A DNA stretch of 24,000 nt, from assembly GCA_963783735.1 (NCBI GenBank), contig CAWAOO010000001.1, forward strand, positions 326,295-350,294. The letters run 5' to 3'. Source of the stretch: an uncultured Actinomycetota bacterium. Lineage in GTDB: Bacteria > Actinomycetota > Actinomycetes > Actinomycetales > Dermatophilaceae. Below, one piece after another: positions 8,873 through 16,065 of the stretch (within the stretch, counting starts at the first letter, position 1; each line of letters begins with the position of its first letter). The notes beneath the pieces are model-generated. The model did not search any database. It saw only the letters and a program-made list of their open reading frames with translations, and was not told the origin of the DNA. Position numbers and translations under genes: made by a program.

Positions 8873-9988
8873 ATGATCGGGTCCATGACAACGGCCAACC
8901 GGACCGGTGGCGCCCGGGAGCGGCGCCCGGCGCCCGAGCCGGTCCTCCTCGAACCGGCCGGCGACGCTGGCCGGCTCCGGGAGGCCGCCGGCGCGGCCGC
9001 CGCGGCGCGCGGGAGCACGCGCGCCGCGCTCGGCCTCGCCGGCGACGTCGGCACGTGGGCGCCCCTTCCCGGCGAGGGCCGCACCCGGCAGCTGTGGGAG
9101 CTGCTCGCCACGCTCGCCGCCGTCGACCTCACCCTCGCCCGGACCGTCGAGCCCCACCTCGACGCGCTCGCGATCCTCCACCAGTCGCGGGCCCGGGGGC
9201 TCGAGCGCGTCGGGGCCGGGAGCGACAGCGTCTGGGGGGTCTACGCGGCCGAGGGGGCCGGCGCCCGCCTCGACGCCGTGCCCCAGGCCGGCGGCTGGGT
9301 GGTCACCGGTCGGAAGCCGTGGTGCTCCCTGGCCGGAGACCTCAGCCACGCCCTCGTCACCGCCCACCTCCCCGGTGACCGGGGCCGGCAGGCCTTCGCC
9401 GTCGCCCTCCGGGGGCCGGGGGTGACCCCCGTCGGGGCGCCGTGGGCTGCCCGGGGACTCGCCGACGTCCCGAGCGGGCCGCTCGACCTCGACCGGGCCC
9501 CCGCCGTCCCCGTCGGCGGTCCGGGCTGGTACCTCACCCGTCCCGGGTTCGCGTGGGGTGGGATCGGCGTCGCCGCCTGCTGGTACGGCGGCGCCGTCGC
9601 GGTCGGGCGACGGATGCTCCGGCAGGCGGGGGAGCGCGAGCTCGACCAGGTCGGCCACATGCACCTCGGGGCCGTCGACGCCGCGCTCCACGCGGCCCGG
9701 CTCGCCCTGGGCGATGCCGCGCGCGCGGTCGACGGCGGTCGGGCCGAGGGGGCGGCGGGGGCGACCGCGGCCCTGCGGGCCCGGCACGTCGTCGCCCGCT
9801 CCGCCGAGGACGTCCTCCGCCGGGCGGCGCACGCGCTCGGCCCGGCCCCGCTCGCCCTCGAGGAGGAGCACGCCGCCCGGGTCGCCGACCTCGATCTCTA
9901 CCTGCGCCAGGAGCACGCAGAGCGGGACGAGGCCGCACTCGGCCGAGCTGTCCTGGCCGGCTCCGCATCCACCGAGGGCTCCCGATGA
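8873..9988 (+). CDS. Acyl-CoA dehydrogenase-fold flavoprotein (atypical, short N-terminal domain; function unknown)
   Basis: 371 aa with an ACAD-like middle beta-domain and C-terminal helical bundle: WVVTGRKPWCSLAGDLSHALVTA, RGLADVPSGPLDLD, WGGIGVAACWYGGAVAVGR, ...VADLDLYLRQEHAERDEAALGR. The start could instead be the ATG at 8885. The stop overlaps the next gene's start (ATGA). Confidence 0.65.
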   Translation: MIGSMTTANRTGGARERRPAPEPVLLEPAGDAGRLREAAGAAAAARGSTRAALGLAGDVGTWAPLPGEGRTRQLWELLATLAAVDLTLARTVEPHLDALAILHQSRARGLERVGAGSDSVWGVYAAEGAGARLDAVPQAGGWVVTGRKPWCSLAGDLSHALVTAHLPGDRGRQAFAVALRGPGVTPVGAPWAARGLADVPSGPLDLDRAPAVPVGGPGWYLTRPGFAWGGIGVAACWYGGAVAVGRRMLRQAGERELDQVGHMHLGAVDAALHAARLALGDAARAVDGGRAEGAAGATAALRARHVVARSAEDVLRRAAHALGPAPLALEEEHAARVADLDLYLRQEHAERDEAALGRAVLAGSASTEGSR

Positions 9989-11376
9989 CGGACCGGACGA
10001 CCGGGCCGAGGACGGAGCCGAGGTTCCGGCACGACGACCTCGGGACGCCCGAGCGGCTCTGGGCCGGGGAGCCCGCCTTCGACGGCCTCCCGCGGATCGA
10101 CCTCGGCGCCTGGCCGGGCCTGCGCCGGGTGCTCGTCGTCGCGGCCCACCCGGACGACGAGACCCTCGGCGCGGCCGGCCTCGTCCGGGCCGCCGCCGAC
10201 GCCGGCCTCGGCGTCGAGGTCGCCGCGGCGACGTCCGGCGAGGGCTCCCACCCGGGGTCCCGGACCCATGACCGTGCTCGGCTCGCACGGGTCCGCGACG
10301 TCGAGCTCGAGGCTGCCGTCGGCGTCCTCGCGCCCGCGTGCCGGGTCCACCGCCTCGGCCTCCCGGACGGCGGGCTGGCCGACCGTGAGGACGAGCTCGC
10401 CGAGCGCCTCTCCGGACTCCTCGGCGAGGGGGCGTCGACGCTTGTCGTCGCGCCGTGGCGCTCCGACGGCCACCCCGACCACGAAGCCGCTGGACGCGCC
10501 GCGGCCCGCGCGGCCCGGGACGGCGGCGCACCGCTGCTCGAGTACCCCGTGTGGCTCTGGCACTGGGGGTCCGAGGACGACGTCCCGTGGGACGACGCCG
10601 TGCGCCTCGACCTCGACCGCGACGCGCGGACGGCGAAGACGGCGGCGATCGCCGCCCACCGGAGCCAGAGCGAGGCCCTCTCGCCGGAGCCGGGCGACGA
10701 GCCGGTCCTCCTTCCGCACACCCTCGAGCACTTCGCCCGGGCGTTCGAGGTCTTCCTCGCCGGTGCGGAGGCCCGCGGCGTGGTCGCCCTCGAGGACCTC
10801 CACCGCCGCGAGCGCGACCCGTGGGGGGTCGGTGAGGGGTGGTACGAACGCCGCAAGCGGGCCCTGACGCTCGCGAGCCTCCCGCGCGAGCGGTTCGCCC
10901 GGGGCCTCGAGGTCGGCTGCTCCGTCGGGGCGCTCGCCGCCGACCTCGCGACCCGGTGCGACCGGCTCGTCGGCCTCGACGCGAGCGCCTCCGCCCTCGC
11001 CGAGGCTCGGGCCCGGGTCGGGGGCCTCGGCACGGTCGAGCTCGCCCACCTCCACGTCCCCCGGCAGTGGCCACAGGGCCGGTTCGACCTCGTCGTCCTC
11101 TCGGAGGTCGGCTACTTCTGCGAGCGCGACCAGCTCGCGGGCCTCGTCGAGCGGGCTGTCGGGTCGCTCACCGACGACGGGGTCCTGCTCGCGTGCCACT
11201 GGCGGCACCCCGTCACCGGCTGGCCGCTCGACGGGGACGAGGTCCATGCCGTCCTCGGCGGCCACCCCGGCCTCGAGGTGCTCGCCAGACACGTCGAGGA
11301 GGACTTCGCGCTCGACGTCCTCGTGCCGCCCCCGGCGACCTCGGTCGCCCGTCGCAGCGGCCTCCTCGGCGGGTGA
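9985..11376 (+). CDS. Bifunctional PIG-L/LmbE-family de-N-acetylase :: NodS-like class I SAM-dependent methyltransferase
   Basis: 463 aa. PIG-L motifs: VLVVAAHPDDETLGAAG and DGHPDHEAAGRAA. The C-terminal half reads RERDPWGVGEGWYERRKRALTLASLPRERFARGLEVGCSVGALAADLATRCDRLVGLDASASALAEARAR, i.e. SAM motif I preceded by the DPW...YE..K signature I associate with NodS-type methyltransferases. ATGA and GTGA overlaps occur at its two ends. Confidence 0.8.
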   Translation: MTDRTTGPRTEPRFRHDDLGTPERLWAGEPAFDGLPRIDLGAWPGLRRVLVVAAHPDDETLGAAGLVRAAADAGLGVEVAAATSGEGSHPGSRTHDRARLARVRDVELEAAVGVLAPACRVHRLGLPDGGLADREDELAERLSGLLGEGASTLVVAPWRSDGHPDHEAAGRAAARAARDGGAPLLEYPVWLWHWGSEDDVPWDDAVRLDLDRDARTAKTAAIAAHRSQSEALSPEPGDEPVLLPHTLEHFARAFEVFLAGAEARGVVALEDLHRRERDPWGVGEGWYERRKRALTLASLPRERFARGLEVGCSVGALAADLATRCDRLVGLDASASALAEARARVGGLGTVELAHLHVPRQWPQGRFDLVVLSEVGYFCERDQLAGLVERAVGSLTDDGVLLACHWRHPVTGWPLDGDEVHAVLGGHPGLEVLARHVEEDFALDVLVPPPATSVARRSGLLGG

Positions 11377-12122
11377 GCGCCTGCACGGCCGTCCGGGTCG
11401 TCGTCCCGGCCCGCGACGAGGAGATCCTCCTGCCGGGGTGCCTTCGGACGCTCGCCGTCGCCGTCGCCCGGCTCGCGGGGGAGGCCGCCGACGGGCCGGA
11501 CGGCCATGCCGCGCCGCTCGACGCCGGGATCGTCCTCGTCCTCGACCGGTGCACCGACCGGTCCGCCGCGGTCGCCCGCTCCGTGCCCGGCGTCGACGTC
11601 CTCGAGGTCGACGCGGGCAGCGTCGGGTCGGCGCGCGACCTTGGGGCTCGACGCGCGCTCGCCTCGTGCGCGGCGGAGCCGCGGCACGTCTGGCTCGCGA
11701 TGACCGACGCGGACTCGCAGGTGCCGGCCTCGTGGCTCACCGGCCAGCTCGACCACGCCCGCGCGGGGGCCGACCTCGTCGTCGGCACCGTCGAGCCGGA
11801 CGTCGACGTCTCCCCGCACGTCCTGGCGCGGTGGCGCGCCGCGCACGACCTCCGGGAGGGCCACCCCCACGTCCACGGAGCGAACCTCGGGATCCGGGGC
11901 GACGCCTACCTCGCCGCCGGTGGGTTCCGGGCGTGGGCGTGCGAGGAGGACGTCGACCTCGTCGCCCGGGTCACGGCCGCCGGCCGGGCGGTGGCCCGGA
12001 CCGACCGGGGACGCGTCCGGACGTCCGCGCGGCTGCTCGGCCGGGCGCCGGGCGGGTTCGCCGCCCACCTGCGACGGCTCGCCCTGCCCGAGGAGCCGAC
12101 CACCCTCGACCCGGCGACCTGA
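11373..12122 (+). CDS. Small family-2 glycosyltransferase (GT-A fold)
   Basis: 249 aa from the GTG at 11373, which overlaps the upstream TGA. Motifs: RVVVPARDEEILLPGCL, IVLVLDRCTDRS, WLAMTDADSQVP (DxD), GANLGIRGDAYLAAGGF, EDVDLV. No obvious TM segments. Confidence 0.75.
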   Translation: MSACTAVRVVVPARDEEILLPGCLRTLAVAVARLAGEAADGPDGHAAPLDAGIVLVLDRCTDRSAAVARSVPGVDVLEVDAGSVGSARDLGARRALASCAAEPRHVWLAMTDADSQVPASWLTGQLDHARAGADLVVGTVEPDVDVSPHVLARWRAAHDLREGHPHVHGANLGIRGDAYLAAGGFRAWACEEDVDLVARVTAAGRAVARTDRGRVRTSARLLGRAPGGFAAHLRRLALPEEPTTLDPAT

Positions 12123-12136
12123 CGGCGGGCGCCGTC
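12121..12136. terminator. Small GC hairpin between the convergent GT2 and heliorhodopsin genes (possible bidirectional terminator)
   Basis: GACGGC-gggc-GCCGTC (6-bp stem, 4-nt loop) within the 24-bp convergent gap. An alternative CGGCGG...CCGCCG pairing is possible. No U-tract follows. Confidence 0.3.
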
Positions 12137-12146
12137 CGTCCGCCGG

Positions 12147-12944
12147 TCAGCCGGCCAGGGAGCCGCCGAAGATCTGCCACGCGAGGACGGACTTCGCGAC
12201 GAGGCTGAGGACGAGGTAGGCCTTCTCGCCGTACGCGTAGTCGGCCCAGCGCCCGACGCCGCGGTACTGGAGCCACTGGTTGAGGCCGAAGCTGAAGAAG
12301 AAGACCGCCTGGGCGACGAGGATCCCGTAGACGAAGCCCGGCACCGTGGCCGACCCGACGATGTTGATGCCGAGCGCGACCCACGGGGCGAGCCCGACGA
12401 GGGTCCCGAACCAGAACGGGAGCATCGTCGTCGAGGACCGCCCGGGCGGGTTCATGAGCTCCTGGACCCAGCCGAAGAGGATCATCGCGACGTTGGCCCC
12501 GATGATCCCGACGACGGCGCTGATCCCGGTGATGCCGGAGTAGAACCCGATGAGGACGACCATGAGGGTCGCGCTCAGCGAGTATTCGACCCAGCGGAAC
12601 CGGTTGATCCCGCGCCGGAGGTCGCGCTCGTACACCCCGCGGCCGAACGTCGCGGTGAGGAGGTGGTCGAGGGCCGCGAGCGCGAGGAAGAGTGCGACCG
12701 CCCAGCCGATCGGGACGTCGAAGAGCGCCCCGGGGGCGGGTGGCGCCGCCCCCGGCGGGCCCTCGGGGAAGGAGGACGTCACCGTGATCGCGAAGCTCCC
12801 GGCGAGAGCGACGACGACGACCGCCTGGGCGAGGTGGAGGACGCTGAGGGCGAGGTTCCACCGGCGGAGGCCGGCGAGCCGCACGTCGGTGACGCCGGGG
12901 GCCACGAGCGGCCCGACGGACGTGCTGGCCTCAGGCGCGCTCAC
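12147..12944 (-). CDS. Heliorhodopsin (inverted-topology, retinal-binding seven-TM protein)
   Basis: 265 aa. By-eye alignment to the recalled HeR 48C12 sequence: RWNLALSVLHLAQ (His37 ~ H23), LAALDHLL (His94 ~ H80), INRFRWVEYSLSATLMVVLI (Glu120 ~ E107 counterion), NVAMILFGWVQE, MLPFWFG, VPGFVYGILV, WLQYRGVGRWADYAYGEKAYLVLSLVAKSVLAWQIFGGSL (Lys251 ~ K241 Schiff-base lysine, codon at 12192..12194). The GTG start is preceded by GAGGA with 6-nt spacing. Confidence 0.9.
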   Translation of the reverse strand: MSAPEASTSVGPLVAPGVTDVRLAGLRRWNLALSVLHLAQAVVVVALAGSFAITVTSSFPEGPPGAAPPAPGALFDVPIGWAVALFLALAALDHLLTATFGRGVYERDLRRGINRFRWVEYSLSATLMVVLIGFYSGITGISAVVGIIGANVAMILFGWVQELMNPPGRSSTTMLPFWFGTLVGLAPWVALGINIVGSATVPGFVYGILVAQAVFFFSFGLNQWLQYRGVGRWADYAYGEKAYLVLSLVAKSVLAWQIFGGSLAG

Positions 12945-12978
12945 ACCGGGTCCTCGGAGTCGAGGATGACGTGGGCCA

Positions 12979-13407
12979 TCAGCCGGCGAACGACGTCTCC
13001 AGCGTGATGGGCACGGCGGCGAGGGCCTGGCTCACCGGGCAGTTCGCCTTGGCGTCCTCGGCGGCCGCCGTGAAGTCGTCGGCGGTCATCCCGGGGACGG
13101 CGCCGGTGACCTTGATGGCGATGCCGGTGATCCCGGTCCCGGGCTGGAAGGTCACCTCGGCGGTCGTGTCGAGCGTCGTCGGAGGCGTCCCGGCCTGCGC
13201 GAGCCCGTTCGAGAGCGCCATGGAGAAGCACGTCGAGTGCGCCGCGGCGATGAGCTCCTCCGGGCTCGTCCTGCCGTCGGCCTGCTCGGCGCGCGAGGGC
13301 CAGGTGACGTCGTACGTCCCGAGCCCGGACGACTCGAGGGTGACCTGGCCCGCCCCTTCGAACAGGGAGCCTTCCCAGTGGGCGGACGCGGTACGGGTCG
13401 TGGCCAT
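12979..13407 (-). CDS. osmC: OsmC-family peroxiredoxin (organic hydroperoxide reductase-like)
   Basis: 142 aa. Both conserved cysteines are in their typical contexts (AAAHSTCFSMALS and DAKANCPVSQAL). The N-terminus ASAHWEGSL is typical of the OsmC subfamily. AGGAG RBS lies 6 nt before the ATG. Confidence 0.88.
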   Translation of the reverse strand: MATTRTASAHWEGSLFEGAGQVTLESSGLGTYDVTWPSRAEQADGRTSPEELIAAAHSTCFSMALSNGLAQAGTPPTTLDTTAEVTFQPGTGITGIAIKVTGAVPGMTADDFTAAAEDAKANCPVSQALAAVPITLETSFAG

Positions 13408-13439
13408 CGGGCGCTCCTCGGTGCGGCGGTCGGGCCCTC

Positions 13440-13469
13440 ATCCTCACCCGCGCGGCGCGCGCTTGGCAA
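13440..13469 (-). promoter_or_regulatory. Candidate sigma-70-type promoter for the osmC-heliorhodopsin transcription unit
   Basis: On the minus strand: TTGCCA (13469..13464), an 18-nt spacer, then GAGGAT (13445..13440), about 32 nt upstream of the osmC ATG. The -10 element is weak, so this is sequence-pattern evidence only. Confidence 0.3.
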
Positions 13470-13495
13470 CACCCGTCCGTGTCCGGGCCGGCCGG

Positions 13496-14779
13496 TCAGG
13501 GGATGACGACCTGCCGGGTCACCTGCCCGTTGTTCTCCCAGTAGGTCTGCCGGTTGACGATGGAGGCGTCCGTCTGCGCGGGCTGGACCTCCCCGTCGTC
13601 GGCGACGGCACGCGAGGTGACGGTGTGCGCACCGGGCGCCGGACCGCCCCACTCCCAGGTCCAGAAGACCCACGCGCTCCCGCTCCTGCCTCTGGCGCGG
13701 GTCCGGTGGAGCCGGGCCCGGTGCCACGGCCCGGAGTCGACCCTGACCTCGACGCGGTCGACCCGGCCTCCCCAGGCGGCGCCCATGACGGCGTACTGCT
13801 CGCCGCGGCGGAGGACCTTCGCCGGGGCGGACTTCAGCCGGGCGTGGCCGACGGTCGTGAACGTCCACACGGTCTCGCCGTCGTGCTCCTCCTCGCGGAC
13901 GGTGACGTAGTCGCGGGCCATGAAGCGTCCGGCGTACCGGCCCTCGCGGAGCTCGATCCGGGTGAGCCACTTGACGTTCGCGACGCCGTACCACCCGGGG
14001 GCGATGAGGCGCAGGGGTCCGCCGTGGTCGGCGGGGAGGTCGGCGCCGTTCATCTCGTCGCAGAGAAGCTTCTCCCCGTCGAGCGCGTCCTCGAGGGGCA
14101 TGCTCCGGGCGAACTGCTCGGTGACGGTGAGGTCGAGCCCGCCCCCGGCGTCCTGCTCGGTCCCGCCGGTGAGGCCGCCCCCGGTGACGCCGGAGTTGTC
14201 CCGAACCGTCACCTCGCCGCGGTCGACACCCCAGAAGACGACCTCGGTGGCCCGGTCCTTGGGCCGGGCCAGCCGGAGGACGTGGGCGAGGGAGGTCCCG
14301 CCCCAGCGGGCGGTGCCGACGCCCCCGATGAGGAACGGGAGACCGTGGTTGCCCGCGCACTCGAGGGTGAAGTCGACGCTCCGCCGGTGCCGCCCGCGCA
14401 GGTCCTCGAGGCCGAGGGACTGGGGGTGCTCGACGAGGCCGTCGACGGTGAGCCGCCACCGGTCCCGCTCGAGCACCGCCGGCGACGGCTGGCCGTAGTG
14501 CTTGACGGTGAAGAAGGCGTCGTTCGGGGTTCGCCACGTGTCGAGGTCCTCCCAGACCAGCGGGTGCCCGAGGAGGTCCGTGGCGGGGCCGGGGATGTCG
14601 GCCGGCTGGTCCTGCCACGGGATGACCACCCCCGGGTCGTGCCCCCGCGGGGATGACCCGGAGGCGTCTGCGGAGAAGGCCTCCGCAGGGCCGGCGAGGC
14701 TCGTCACGGTGAGGCCCGCCACGCCGGCGGCTGCGCCGCCCTTGAGGACCGAACGTCGGGGGAGATCGTGCTTGTCCAT
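13496..14779 (-). CDS. Tat-exported molybdopterin oxidoreductase of the sulfite-oxidase family (catalytic plus dimerisation/Ig-like domains)
   Basis: 427 aa. Twin-arginine signal MDKHDLPRRSVLKGGAAAGVAGLTV...AEA. FFTVKHYG; Mo-ligand Cys context FTLECAGNHG; HGGPLRLIAPGWYGVANVKWLTRIEL; C-terminal beta-rich domain. Confidence 0.85.
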   Translation of the reverse strand: MDKHDLPRRSVLKGGAAAGVAGLTVTSLAGPAEAFSADASGSSPRGHDPGVVIPWQDQPADIPGPATDLLGHPLVWEDLDTWRTPNDAFFTVKHYGQPSPAVLERDRWRLTVDGLVEHPQSLGLEDLRGRHRRSVDFTLECAGNHGLPFLIGGVGTARWGGTSLAHVLRLARPKDRATEVVFWGVDRGEVTVRDNSGVTGGGLTGGTEQDAGGGLDLTVTEQFARSMPLEDALDGEKLLCDEMNGADLPADHGGPLRLIAPGWYGVANVKWLTRIELREGRYAGRFMARDYVTVREEEHDGETVWTFTTVGHARLKSAPAKVLRRGEQYAVMGAAWGGRVDRVEVRVDSGPWHRARLHRTRARGRSGSAWVFWTWEWGGPAPGAHTVTSRAVADDGEVQPAQTDASIVNRQTYWENNGQVTRQVVIP

Positions 14780-14868: not shown

Positions 14869-16065
14869 TCAGGACCCCGGGTGGCAGTGCGCGATCGCCG
14901 AGCCGACGAGCCGGAACGCCTGGCTCTCGTCGATGTCGGGGTTCACGCCCGCCTGGAACAGGACGATGATGTCGGACCCGCCGAACTGGAAGTACCCGAA
15001 CTCGTCGCCCTTGGCGACCTCGGCGCCGGCGGCGGGGGTGACGGTGACGGAGGCGACGTGGGACATCCCGACCGGGACGACGGCGACGAGGCCGACGTCG
15101 CCCTGCCCGGAGGCGGCCGTGTCGAGGACGAGGACCCCCCTCGTCTGCGAGAACTCGTACCCGGTCCGGGCGCTGTCGCGGGCGGTGAGCCGGCCGTCCT
15201 CGAGGTCGACCTCGACGTAGACCCGGCCGGTGACGACGAAGGACTCCTTGACGGTCCCGGCGACCGGCAGGTGGTAGCGGTGGTACGCCGACGGCGGAAG
15301 CATGTAGTGGGTGAACGTCCCGCCGGCGAAGGCCTCGGCGTAGTCGCTCCCCTCGAGGAGCTGGCGGACGTTGCCGTACCGGTGGGTCCCCTTGACCGTC
15401 GTCGCCGGGATGTTCGAGTCGGCGTCGACGTCGAAGTGTCCGCGGAAGCTGCAGTCGGCGGGGGAGGTGACGACCCGGTTGTCGGTCGGGTCGCTCACCG
15501 GCCGGAGGCCGGCGTTGAGCCGGCGGGCGAAGAACTGGTTGAAGGTCAGCCACCCGCTCGGCATGTTCGGGCGGCCGTCGACGAGGGAGTCCGCGACGCC
15601 GTACTCGGGGGCGTTCTCGACGAACGAGGCGAGGATCTCCTCGCTGAAGGACTCGGGGGTGTCGAGGTAGCCCCCCCACGCACGGGCGAACTCGGTGAGC
15701 CAGTCCCGGAACGCCTCGGAGCTCTCGGCGACGGCGGTCCCGTCGACGTCGACCTTCTGGTCGACGAGCCAGTAGAAGTGGGCGAGCCGGTCGCTGACCT
15801 CCTTGGCGTACCGCTCCTCGGGGGCCGAGACCTTCCACGCCTCCGCGTCGGTCTGCTGGGGGATCCAGCGGAGGAACCGGGTGAGGTAGGCGAAGTACCC
15901 CGGCAGGTCCCGCGGCCACTCGAGCGCGTCCCGCAGGGTGGGCTCGAGTTCGGCCTCCGCCCGCTCGCTGGCCCTGACCAGCGAGCGCTCGAGGGTGGTC
16001 GCGAGGTCGCGGTCCTCCTCGAGCAGGCTCTCGAGGTCCCGGAGGATCCGGTCGGGGTCGGTCAT
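14869..16065 (-). CDS. Long-form phosphatidylserine-decarboxylase-family pyruvoyl enzyme (PsiD-like architecture; substrate unknown)
   Basis: 398 aa. Acidic helical N-terminal domain with no TM segment. Then GWLTFNQFFARRL, PSAYHRYHLPVAGTVKE, and the self-cleavage/pyruvoyl motif GDEFGYFQFGGSDIIVLF (G-S). AGGAG lies about 10 nt before the ATG. Confidence 0.8.
   Translation of the reverse strand: MTDPDRILRDLESLLEEDRDLATTLERSLVRASERAEAELEPTLRDALEWPRDLPGYFAYLTRFLRWIPQQTDAEAWKVSAPEERYAKEVSDRLAHFYWLVDQKVDVDGTAVAESSEAFRDWLTEFARAWGGYLDTPESFSEEILASFVENAPEYGVADSLVDGRPNMPSGWLTFNQFFARRLNAGLRPVSDPTDNRVVTSPADCSFRGHFDVDADSNIPATTVKGTHRYGNVRQLLEGSDYAEAFAGGTFTHYMLPPSAYHRYHLPVAGTVKESFVVTGRVYVEVDLEDGRLTARDSARTGYEFSQTRGVLVLDTAASGQGDVGLVAVVPVGMSHVASVTVTPAAGAEVAKGDEFGYFQFGGSDIIVLFQAGVNPDIDESQAFRLVGSAIAHCHPGS

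Follow-up and report, generated by a model that had tools for sequence, protein, structure and literature searches.

The stretch of DNA analysed here (the window) is 24,000 nt long and comes from an uncultured actinobacterium of the Dermatophilaceae (GenBank assembly GCA_963783735.1, contig CAWAOO010000001.1, positions 326,295 to 350,294). It has a GC content of 74%, and the actinobacterial host genome is 3.4 Mb in size. Genes were called from the GC content at third codon positions (GC3) and the window was scanned with Pfam and NCBIfam models, which gave a minus-strand run of four genes encoding, in the direction of transcription, a PSD-family decarboxylase, a sulfite-oxidase-family molybdoenzyme, an OsmC-type hydroperoxide reductase and a heliorhodopsin (HeR) (Table 1). 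An earlier note on this DNA had placed the last three of these genes at the same positions on the same strand, as they were found here, and had raised the possibility of a redox-themed light module in which OsmC and HeR form a hard-wired pair. We compared this arrangement with that of other HeR-bearing Actinomycetota, and asked whether the neighbourhood of HeR and osmC reflects a conserved partnership or a local event in a single lineage.

The HeR gene product matches PF18761 over the whole profile (positions 1-242 of 242) with 323.2 bits against a cut-off of 26.7, and the NCBIfam equivalog NF038020 with 269 bits against a cut-off of 100. Residues K251, E120, H37 and H94 are invariant in an alignment of 15 HeR sequences, and we take the first two to be the probable equivalents of the Schiff-base lysine and counter-ion glutamate of HeR 48C12. 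A public gene call contains an identical 265-aa protein and the same order along the contig (3' end of the molybdoenzyme gene, OsmC, HeR), and the length of the N-terminus is in line with that of relatives, which carry extensions of similar length. A genome-wide search found this to be the only HeR copy. The genome also carries a phytoene synthase gene, while searches of the genome for Blh (PF15461) and type-1 rhodopsin (PF01036) returned no match and their positive controls were likewise unmatched.

The neighbouring osmC is an unremarkable member of its family. Its product scores 170 bits against TIGR03562 (cut-off 85.8) and 46 bits against the Ohr model, below the cut-off of 88.85, and its motifs AAHSTCFSMAL and AKANCPVSQ align with the two cysteine motifs of Escherichia coli OsmC (PDB 1nye, E 1.5e-28). 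With respect to E. coli OsmC (PDB 1nye, 1qwi) and the TIGR03562 subfamily, the protein of the window is alike in subfamily score, length and possession of both catalytic cysteines. We noted no difference of consequence; the sole oddity is the gene that lies downstream of osmC.

Table 1. Features of the osmC-HeR locus and its surroundings, in window coordinates.
Feature	Position	Strand	Basis
Heliorhodopsin (HeR), 265 aa, GTG start	12147-12944	-	PF18761, NF038020
osmC-HeR spacer, 34 nt, GAGGA ribosome-binding site at 12951-12955 within a 6-bp hairpin at 12951-12966	12945-12978	-	sequence, folds
osmC, OsmC-subfamily organic hydroperoxide reductase, 142 aa, catalytic Cys60 and Cys123	12979-13407	-	TIGR03562, 1nye
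osmC promoter-like element, TTGCCA (13464-13469), 18-nt spacer, GAGGAT (13440-13445)	13440-13469	-	sequence reading and orthologs
HeR/GT2 convergent spacer, 24 nt, degraded remnant of a terminator hairpin	12123-12146	.	alignment to the sister species (G001)
Sulfite-oxidase-family molybdoenzyme, 427 aa, twin-arginine (Tat-type) N-terminus	13496-14779	-	PF00174, PF03404
PSD-family decarboxylase	14869-16065	-	gene call, Pfam/NCBIfam scans
GT2 glycosyltransferase, convergent, last gene of an ACAD / PIG-L-methyltransferase / GT2 cassette	11373-12122	+	Pfam GT2, gene call
PIG-L/methyltransferase	9985-11376	+	gene call, Pfam scan
ACAD	8873-9988	+	gene call, Pfam scan

A view of how this arrangement may have arisen comes from the sister species (G001), the only other species of the same genus in the comparison. 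Its osmC ortholog is 85% identical and lies at the syntenic place, where it is followed by 76 nt and then by convergent orthologs of GT2, PIG-L/methyltransferase and ACAD, and HeR is absent from the site. The GT2 gene is thus the conserved far side of the difference between the two species, since the same cassette stands directly after osmC in G001. The 76-nt spacer of G001 (L097:7902-7977) forms a hairpin whose 15-bp core is perfectly paired (-74 kcal/mol, z = -9.1, reached by 0 of 200 shuffles) and looks like a strong bidirectional terminator. In an alignment both HeR flanks of the window are collinear with this spacer. On the osmC side, AGGACCCGG, just before the HeR start, is common to the 3' spacer of the G001 osmC; on the other side the 24 nt after the HeR stop codon match the left half of the G001 hairpin with a local score of 27, a value reached by 12 of 2000 shuffles. 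These 24 nt fold weakly (z = -0.5 and -1.4). Because HeR is missing from the site in G001 and the flanks in the window align with its spacer, the two species are set apart by an indel between osmC and the osmC terminator, whose length is almost exactly that of the HeR open reading frame (ORF). The counterpart of the G001 hairpin in the window is degraded and shortened, with the stop codon of GT2 inside it. In the G001 assembly the 8 kb around osmC are present twice at 99.95% identity, on contigs C9 and C12 (L097, L106), which is probably assembly redundancy.

The sister species does have a HeR of its own, which is on another contig and is 52% identical to that of the window. The window HeR falls into a group with those from Streptomyces, Sanguibacter and Dermatophilaceae, to which it is 77-84% identical, and within the family HeR is patchy, being present in 9 of 36 genomes. 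Both the grouping and the patchiness are compatible with horizontal movement of the gene.

The HeR ORF may have been gained in the lineage of the window or lost from that of G001. In the second case the osmC-HeR tandem would be ancestral to the genus, G001 would have lost HeR through a clean deletion and the window would preserve the older operon. In keeping with this, the tetranucleotide CCGG flanks the HeR ORF at either end and is present once at the empty site of G001, a pattern compatible with microhomology-mediated deletion, and the codon usage of HeR is fully host-like; moreover, the two species carry different HeR types, and any history must therefore include two events or more. However, no other genome of the family has HeR beside an osmC of the window type, and the nearest relatives of the window HeR are in other families and orders. 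It also seems more likely that an ORF was inserted and the terminator then decayed than that a deletion removed exactly one ORF and spared a perfect 15-bp stem. We therefore consider an ancestral tandem possible and rather unlikely, and lean, with some reserve, towards a gain of HeR in the lineage of the window.

The geometry of the junction suggests how HeR may be expressed at this site. The osmC gene ends with a stop codon at 12979-12981, HeR begins with a GTG at 12942-12944, and the GAGGA of the ribosome-binding site lies 6 nt ahead of this GTG. The junction folds on a par with shuffled sequence (z = -1.07 and -1.13), and its sole structure is the 6-bp stem that covers the ribosome-binding site. 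The spacer is essentially without terminator-grade structure, and the three terminator-like matches returned by a generic scan are all inside coding sequence. In several other osmC orthologs, by eye, GC-rich inverted repeats follow just past the stop codon. The same-strand gap of 34 nt, the ribosome-binding site of HeR itself and the promoter-like element upstream of osmC, all described in the earlier note, were recovered as described, and its statement that no hairpin separates the two genes is essentially right.

Upstream of osmC, the identical TTGCCA and GAGGAT hexamers occur in G001 at the same 18-nt spacing, with a diverged spacer sequence between them. Related hexamers were read by eye in five further osmC orthologs, making six in all besides that of the window, as TTGNCN or TTGTGT followed 17-19 nt later by (A/G)AGGNT. 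These hexamers accompany osmC in genomes where no HeR adjoins it, and we take the recurring element to be the probable promoter footprint of osmC. A generic sigma-70 scan made no call at TTGCCA-GAGGAT; it returned zero sites in the whole 74% GC window and zero in shuffled sequence too. A shared transcript is plausible because the two genes are on the same strand with a short gap, no terminator-grade hairpin and a recurrent promoter-like element at osmC, and also because in G001 a strong hairpin comes directly after osmC, while the window keeps its degraded remnant downstream of HeR. From this geometry and these folds, HeR is probably the second cistron of a two-gene osmC-HeR transcription unit.

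It is doubtful, in our view, that HeR is instead transcribed alone from a promoter that lies either within the 34-nt spacer or near the end of the osmC coding sequence, which would leave the tandem without regulatory meaning. This possibility draws on the behaviour of HeR elsewhere, since about 40% of 82 related HeR loci have an upstream gene of opposite orientation, from which it follows that HeR usually has its own promoter, and in close relatives HeR is preceded by 60-200 nt of non-coding sequence. The 6-bp hairpin past osmC could also act as a weak stop. In the window, by contrast, the 34 nt of the spacer are the only non-coding room for a HeR-specific promoter outside the conserved osmC coding sequence. 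The 9 nt of this spacer that adjoin the HeR start match the osmC 3' spacer of G001, and neither the generic scan nor reading by eye found promoter-like hexamers in this stretch. The 3' coding sequence of osmC is itself constrained, as the identity of the protein to its G001 ortholog indicates, and the junction fold is no better than that of shuffled sequence.

To place the juxtaposition in a wider context, HeR neighbourhoods were surveyed in three genome samples. HeR was present in 15 of 61 relatives, in 52 of the 401 genomes sampled from the order and in 110 of the 401 sampled from the phylum. PF02566 was used to find members of the OsmC family in the order and phylum samples. In addition, the 80 best HeR loci among GTDB species were searched to as much as 6 kb on each side with tblastn (E up to 10) and phmmer --max, the latter against 807 called proteins. 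Among the 59 other HeR genomes of the relatives and the order, an OsmC-family gene stands beside HeR in one (G036); in a further one of these genomes (G161) such a gene is 4.3 kb from HeR on the opposite strand. None of the 109 other HeR genomes of the phylum sample has OsmC beside HeR, the nearest on the same contig being about 90 kb off, and no member of the OsmC family lies within about 6 kb of HeR in any of the 80 best loci. Overall the adjacency occurs in one of 168 other HeR-bearing Actinomycetota genomes. The density of OsmC-family genes is about 3 per 3.8-Mb genome in the order sample and about 1.3 per 2.9 Mb in the phylum sample, so by our own arithmetic chance alone would give about 0.3 adjacencies in 168 genomes, or about 0.1-0.25% per genome. 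Where relatives with HeR have orthologs of the window OsmC, a distance of 100-470 kb separates these from HeR, or the two are on different contigs.

The earlier note had proposed such a survey and had named beforehand a lack of recurrent OsmC adjacency as evidence against its pairing. No enrichment was found in the order (1/59), the phylum (0/109) or the further loci (0/80), and the adjacency is missing from the sister species. Because OsmC-HeR adjacency is not enriched in other genomes, the idea that the pair is hard-wired is unsupported. Nor does OsmC behave in these samples as the partner in a conserved HeR operon, understood as the same partner family on the same strand in independent lineages.

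The single other adjacency, in a genome of the same family (G036), differs from that of the window in several respects. On one strand it has two ADH genes, HeR, OsmC, G6PD, a gene of unknown function, a response regulator and a histidine kinase, so HeR and OsmC stand in the opposite order to that in the window. The OsmC of G036 is a member of another subclade, being 50% identical to the window OsmC and 66-73% to a second set of orthologs. Nor do the HeRs of the two loci form a sister pair; the smallest clade that includes both has 21 leaves, and all the others among these lack an adjoining OsmC, although support for its node is weak (0.65). A comparison of G036 with four genomes that have the same OsmC subclade found no common neighbours, so no empty site can be defined there. 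Taken together, these comparisons indicate that the G036 adjacency is independent of that in the window. Within this locus (L101:5085-12892) the two ADH genes are of the Zn-ADH type, the gene of unknown function encodes 146 aa, and a GC-rich inverted repeat follows osmC.

Two adjacencies in one family could be taken as the work of selection, if it were adaptive for HeR to come under a peroxide- or osmotic-stress promoter or to lie close to the detoxification of organic peroxides. We think this improbable. If it were true, the capture of a promoterless, ORF-sized HeR in the 3' untranslated region of osmC would be a natural experiment joining HeR to lipid and organic-hydroperoxide stress in the light.

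The proposal of the earlier note went further, with HeR as a light-dependent regulator or partner of OsmC and the exported molybdoenzyme completing a redox-themed module. Its appeal is easy to see, for osmC and HeR do form a tight same-strand tandem, and the second adjacency is followed by G6PD and a two-component system. Published work on HeR neighbourhoods points in the same direction. Bulzu et al. (2021, mSphere; PMC8612252) reported that redox proteins are enriched near HeRs, among them glutaredoxin, thioredoxin, peroxidase, catalase and peroxiredoxin, and proposed that HeRs mitigate light-induced oxidative stress. The window resembles their cases in having a monoderm actinobacterial HeR beside a same-strand gene for an antioxidant enzyme. 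It differs from them in that OsmC is not named in the main text of that paper, the gap of 34 nt exceeds the paper's operon criterion of <10 bp, and the pairing is known from one species only, with the OsmC family not enriched in the 168 genomes and 80 loci. A second precedent is AbHeR, which reportedly (PLoS Biol 2022; PMC9529153) shares a putative operon with glutamine synthetase and was found by experiment to bind and regulate this enzyme. The window is similar in having an actinobacterial HeR beside the gene of a soluble enzyme, the kind of arrangement that the earlier note envisaged, whereas its pair is a prediction from gene positions and lacks comparative conservation. In a literature search we found no paper naming both heliorhodopsin and OsmC, and a looser search yielded nothing of use besides PMC8612252. 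Given an adjacency that is missing from G001, from all but one of the 168 other HeR genomes and from each of the 80 further loci, a chance expectation of about 0.3 adjacencies, a G036 case with opposite gene order, another OsmC subclade and a non-sister HeR, distant OsmC orthologs in HeR-bearing relatives, and a molybdoenzyme that is neither of the expected type nor a conserved neighbour (see below), we judge a dedicated pair to be very unlikely. The tandem is an ordinary instance, confined to one lineage, of an idea on HeR and oxidative stress that has already been published.

The molybdoenzyme is in the sulfite oxidase family, as the earlier note had it, and a twin-arginine motif (RRSVLKG) is visible by eye, although its match to the TAT_signal model (20.7 bits) falls under the Pfam cut-off of 22.7. 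It matches PF00174 (Oxidored_molyb) with 142 bits and PF03404 (Mo-co_dimer) with 27.6 bits; among PDB structures, sulfite oxidases, SorA, SorT and SoxC match it best. Like the branch of SorA, SorT and the eukaryotic sulfite oxidases, it combines molybdenum-binding and dimerisation domains and has a twin-arginine N-terminus; we presume that the motif LECAGN holds the cysteine ligand of the molybdenum. Its scores are far under the equivalog cut-offs of the sulfite dehydrogenases SorA, SoxC and SorT (124 vs 600, 124 vs 420 and 105 vs 570 bits), and it differs from this branch by a Gly-rich insert; among the gene calls and Pfam matches of the window, no gene for a cytochrome partner was found adjacent to it. 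It does not qualify as a SorA-, SorT- or SoxC-type sulfite dehydrogenase and can be placed in the family at the Pfam level only. The Gly-rich insert (about residues 195-215) splits the Pfam match of the molybdenum domain in two.

The further suggestion that this enzyme might be of the MsrP/YedY branch, which would have linked it to the repair of oxidised proteins, did not hold. Against the MsrP equivalog NF003767 it scores 37.4 bits with a cut-off of 207, the dimerisation domain is present, no YedY or MsrP structure is among its PDB matches at E <= 1e-5, and the genes adjoining it are those of the PSD-family decarboxylase and osmC, not msrQ. We therefore reject an MsrP/YedY identity and regard the protein as, by its sequence, a divergent SO/SorA-like enzyme and not one of MsrP type. 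Few genomes of the family carry the gene (3 of 37, that of the window included). Its ortholog in G001 is 68% identical and on another contig, where no other gene of the window flanks it, and neither this ortholog nor that in a third genome (G020) is beside osmC or HeR. In the window it is separated from osmC by 88 nt which contain the promoter-like element of osmC. Most likely it forms a transcription unit of its own, and its position next to osmC is not conserved. The three-gene module of the earlier note is very unlikely.

The lack of a fixed partner is not peculiar to OsmC. Any one neighbour family is found beside HeR in 10 of the 82 loci at most, and those that recur, mostly large and generic, stand at scattered positions; they include SDR, AMP-binding, acyl-CoA dehydrogenase, CoA-transferase, histidine kinase and PAS/GAF-SpoIIE phosphatase. 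The OsmC, peroxiredoxin and sulfite-oxidase families are absent among the recurrent neighbours in these 82 loci. HeR has no fixed neighbours in this clade.

A protein of about 490-530 aa was observed next to HeR in 6 of the 82 loci (L025:3929-5527, L026:4355-5953, L095:4520-5986, L037:3051-4547, L094:4532-5995 and L031:4485-5345), and its representative in L025 has an NmrA-like NAD(P)H-binding domain and a DUF2867 domain. In three of these loci, whose HeRs belong to two subclades (70-73% and 50% identical to that of the window), the gene overlaps the start of HeR by 4 nt. It is the only tightly coupled recurrent HeR neighbour that we saw, and it is not named in the main text of PMC8612252. Separately, OsmC-family matches in nine Actinomycetota genomes (G471, G501, G528, G519, G658, G664, G697, G720 and G795) contain one in-frame TGA, which is compatible with the known OsmC-like selenoprotein family.

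The explanation that we favour begins with an ordinary osmC, which would be vertically inherited and equipped with its own promoter-like element. Relative to the sister species, the HeR gene next to it would be an ORF-sized indel between the osmC stop codon and the former osmC terminator, and it would most likely be expressed as the distal cistron of the osmC mRNA. Translation would start from the GAGGA site, which appears to derive in part from the old 3' spacer of osmC. As OsmC is associated with stress, its promoter is expected to be stress-responsive, and HeR would have been placed under such a promoter. We give a probability of roughly 0.7 to the juxtaposition being a lineage-specific local insertion or retention, with no sign that the two proteins are dedicated partners and no conserved light-redox module.

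Several points weigh against this explanation. Co-transcription is read from geometry, and a weak promoter inside the 3' end of osmC is conceivable. The 6-bp hairpin over the ribosome-binding site could limit translation of HeR, or could act as a weak terminator without a U-tract. The codon usage of HeR (GC3 0.98) is that of the host and carries no compositional sign of recent transfer. A loss of HeR from the sister species is also conceivable, and synteny around osmC breaks down outside the genus. Finally, HeR, osmC and G6PD lie together on one strand in G036, and a weak selective pull of HeR towards peroxide-defence genes is likewise conceivable.

The function of HeR is largely open and gene neighbourhoods are the main source of hypotheses about it. 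The locus described here indicates that a tidy operon of 'light plus redox' appearance can be a juxtaposition found in one species, and the present case should therefore not be listed among the evidence in favour of the oxidative-stress model. It offers instead a clean example of the movement of HeR genes, in which what appears to be a bare ORF lies between a resident gene and its terminator, and the strain would be a convenient system for asking whether the expression of HeR follows the osmC promoter.

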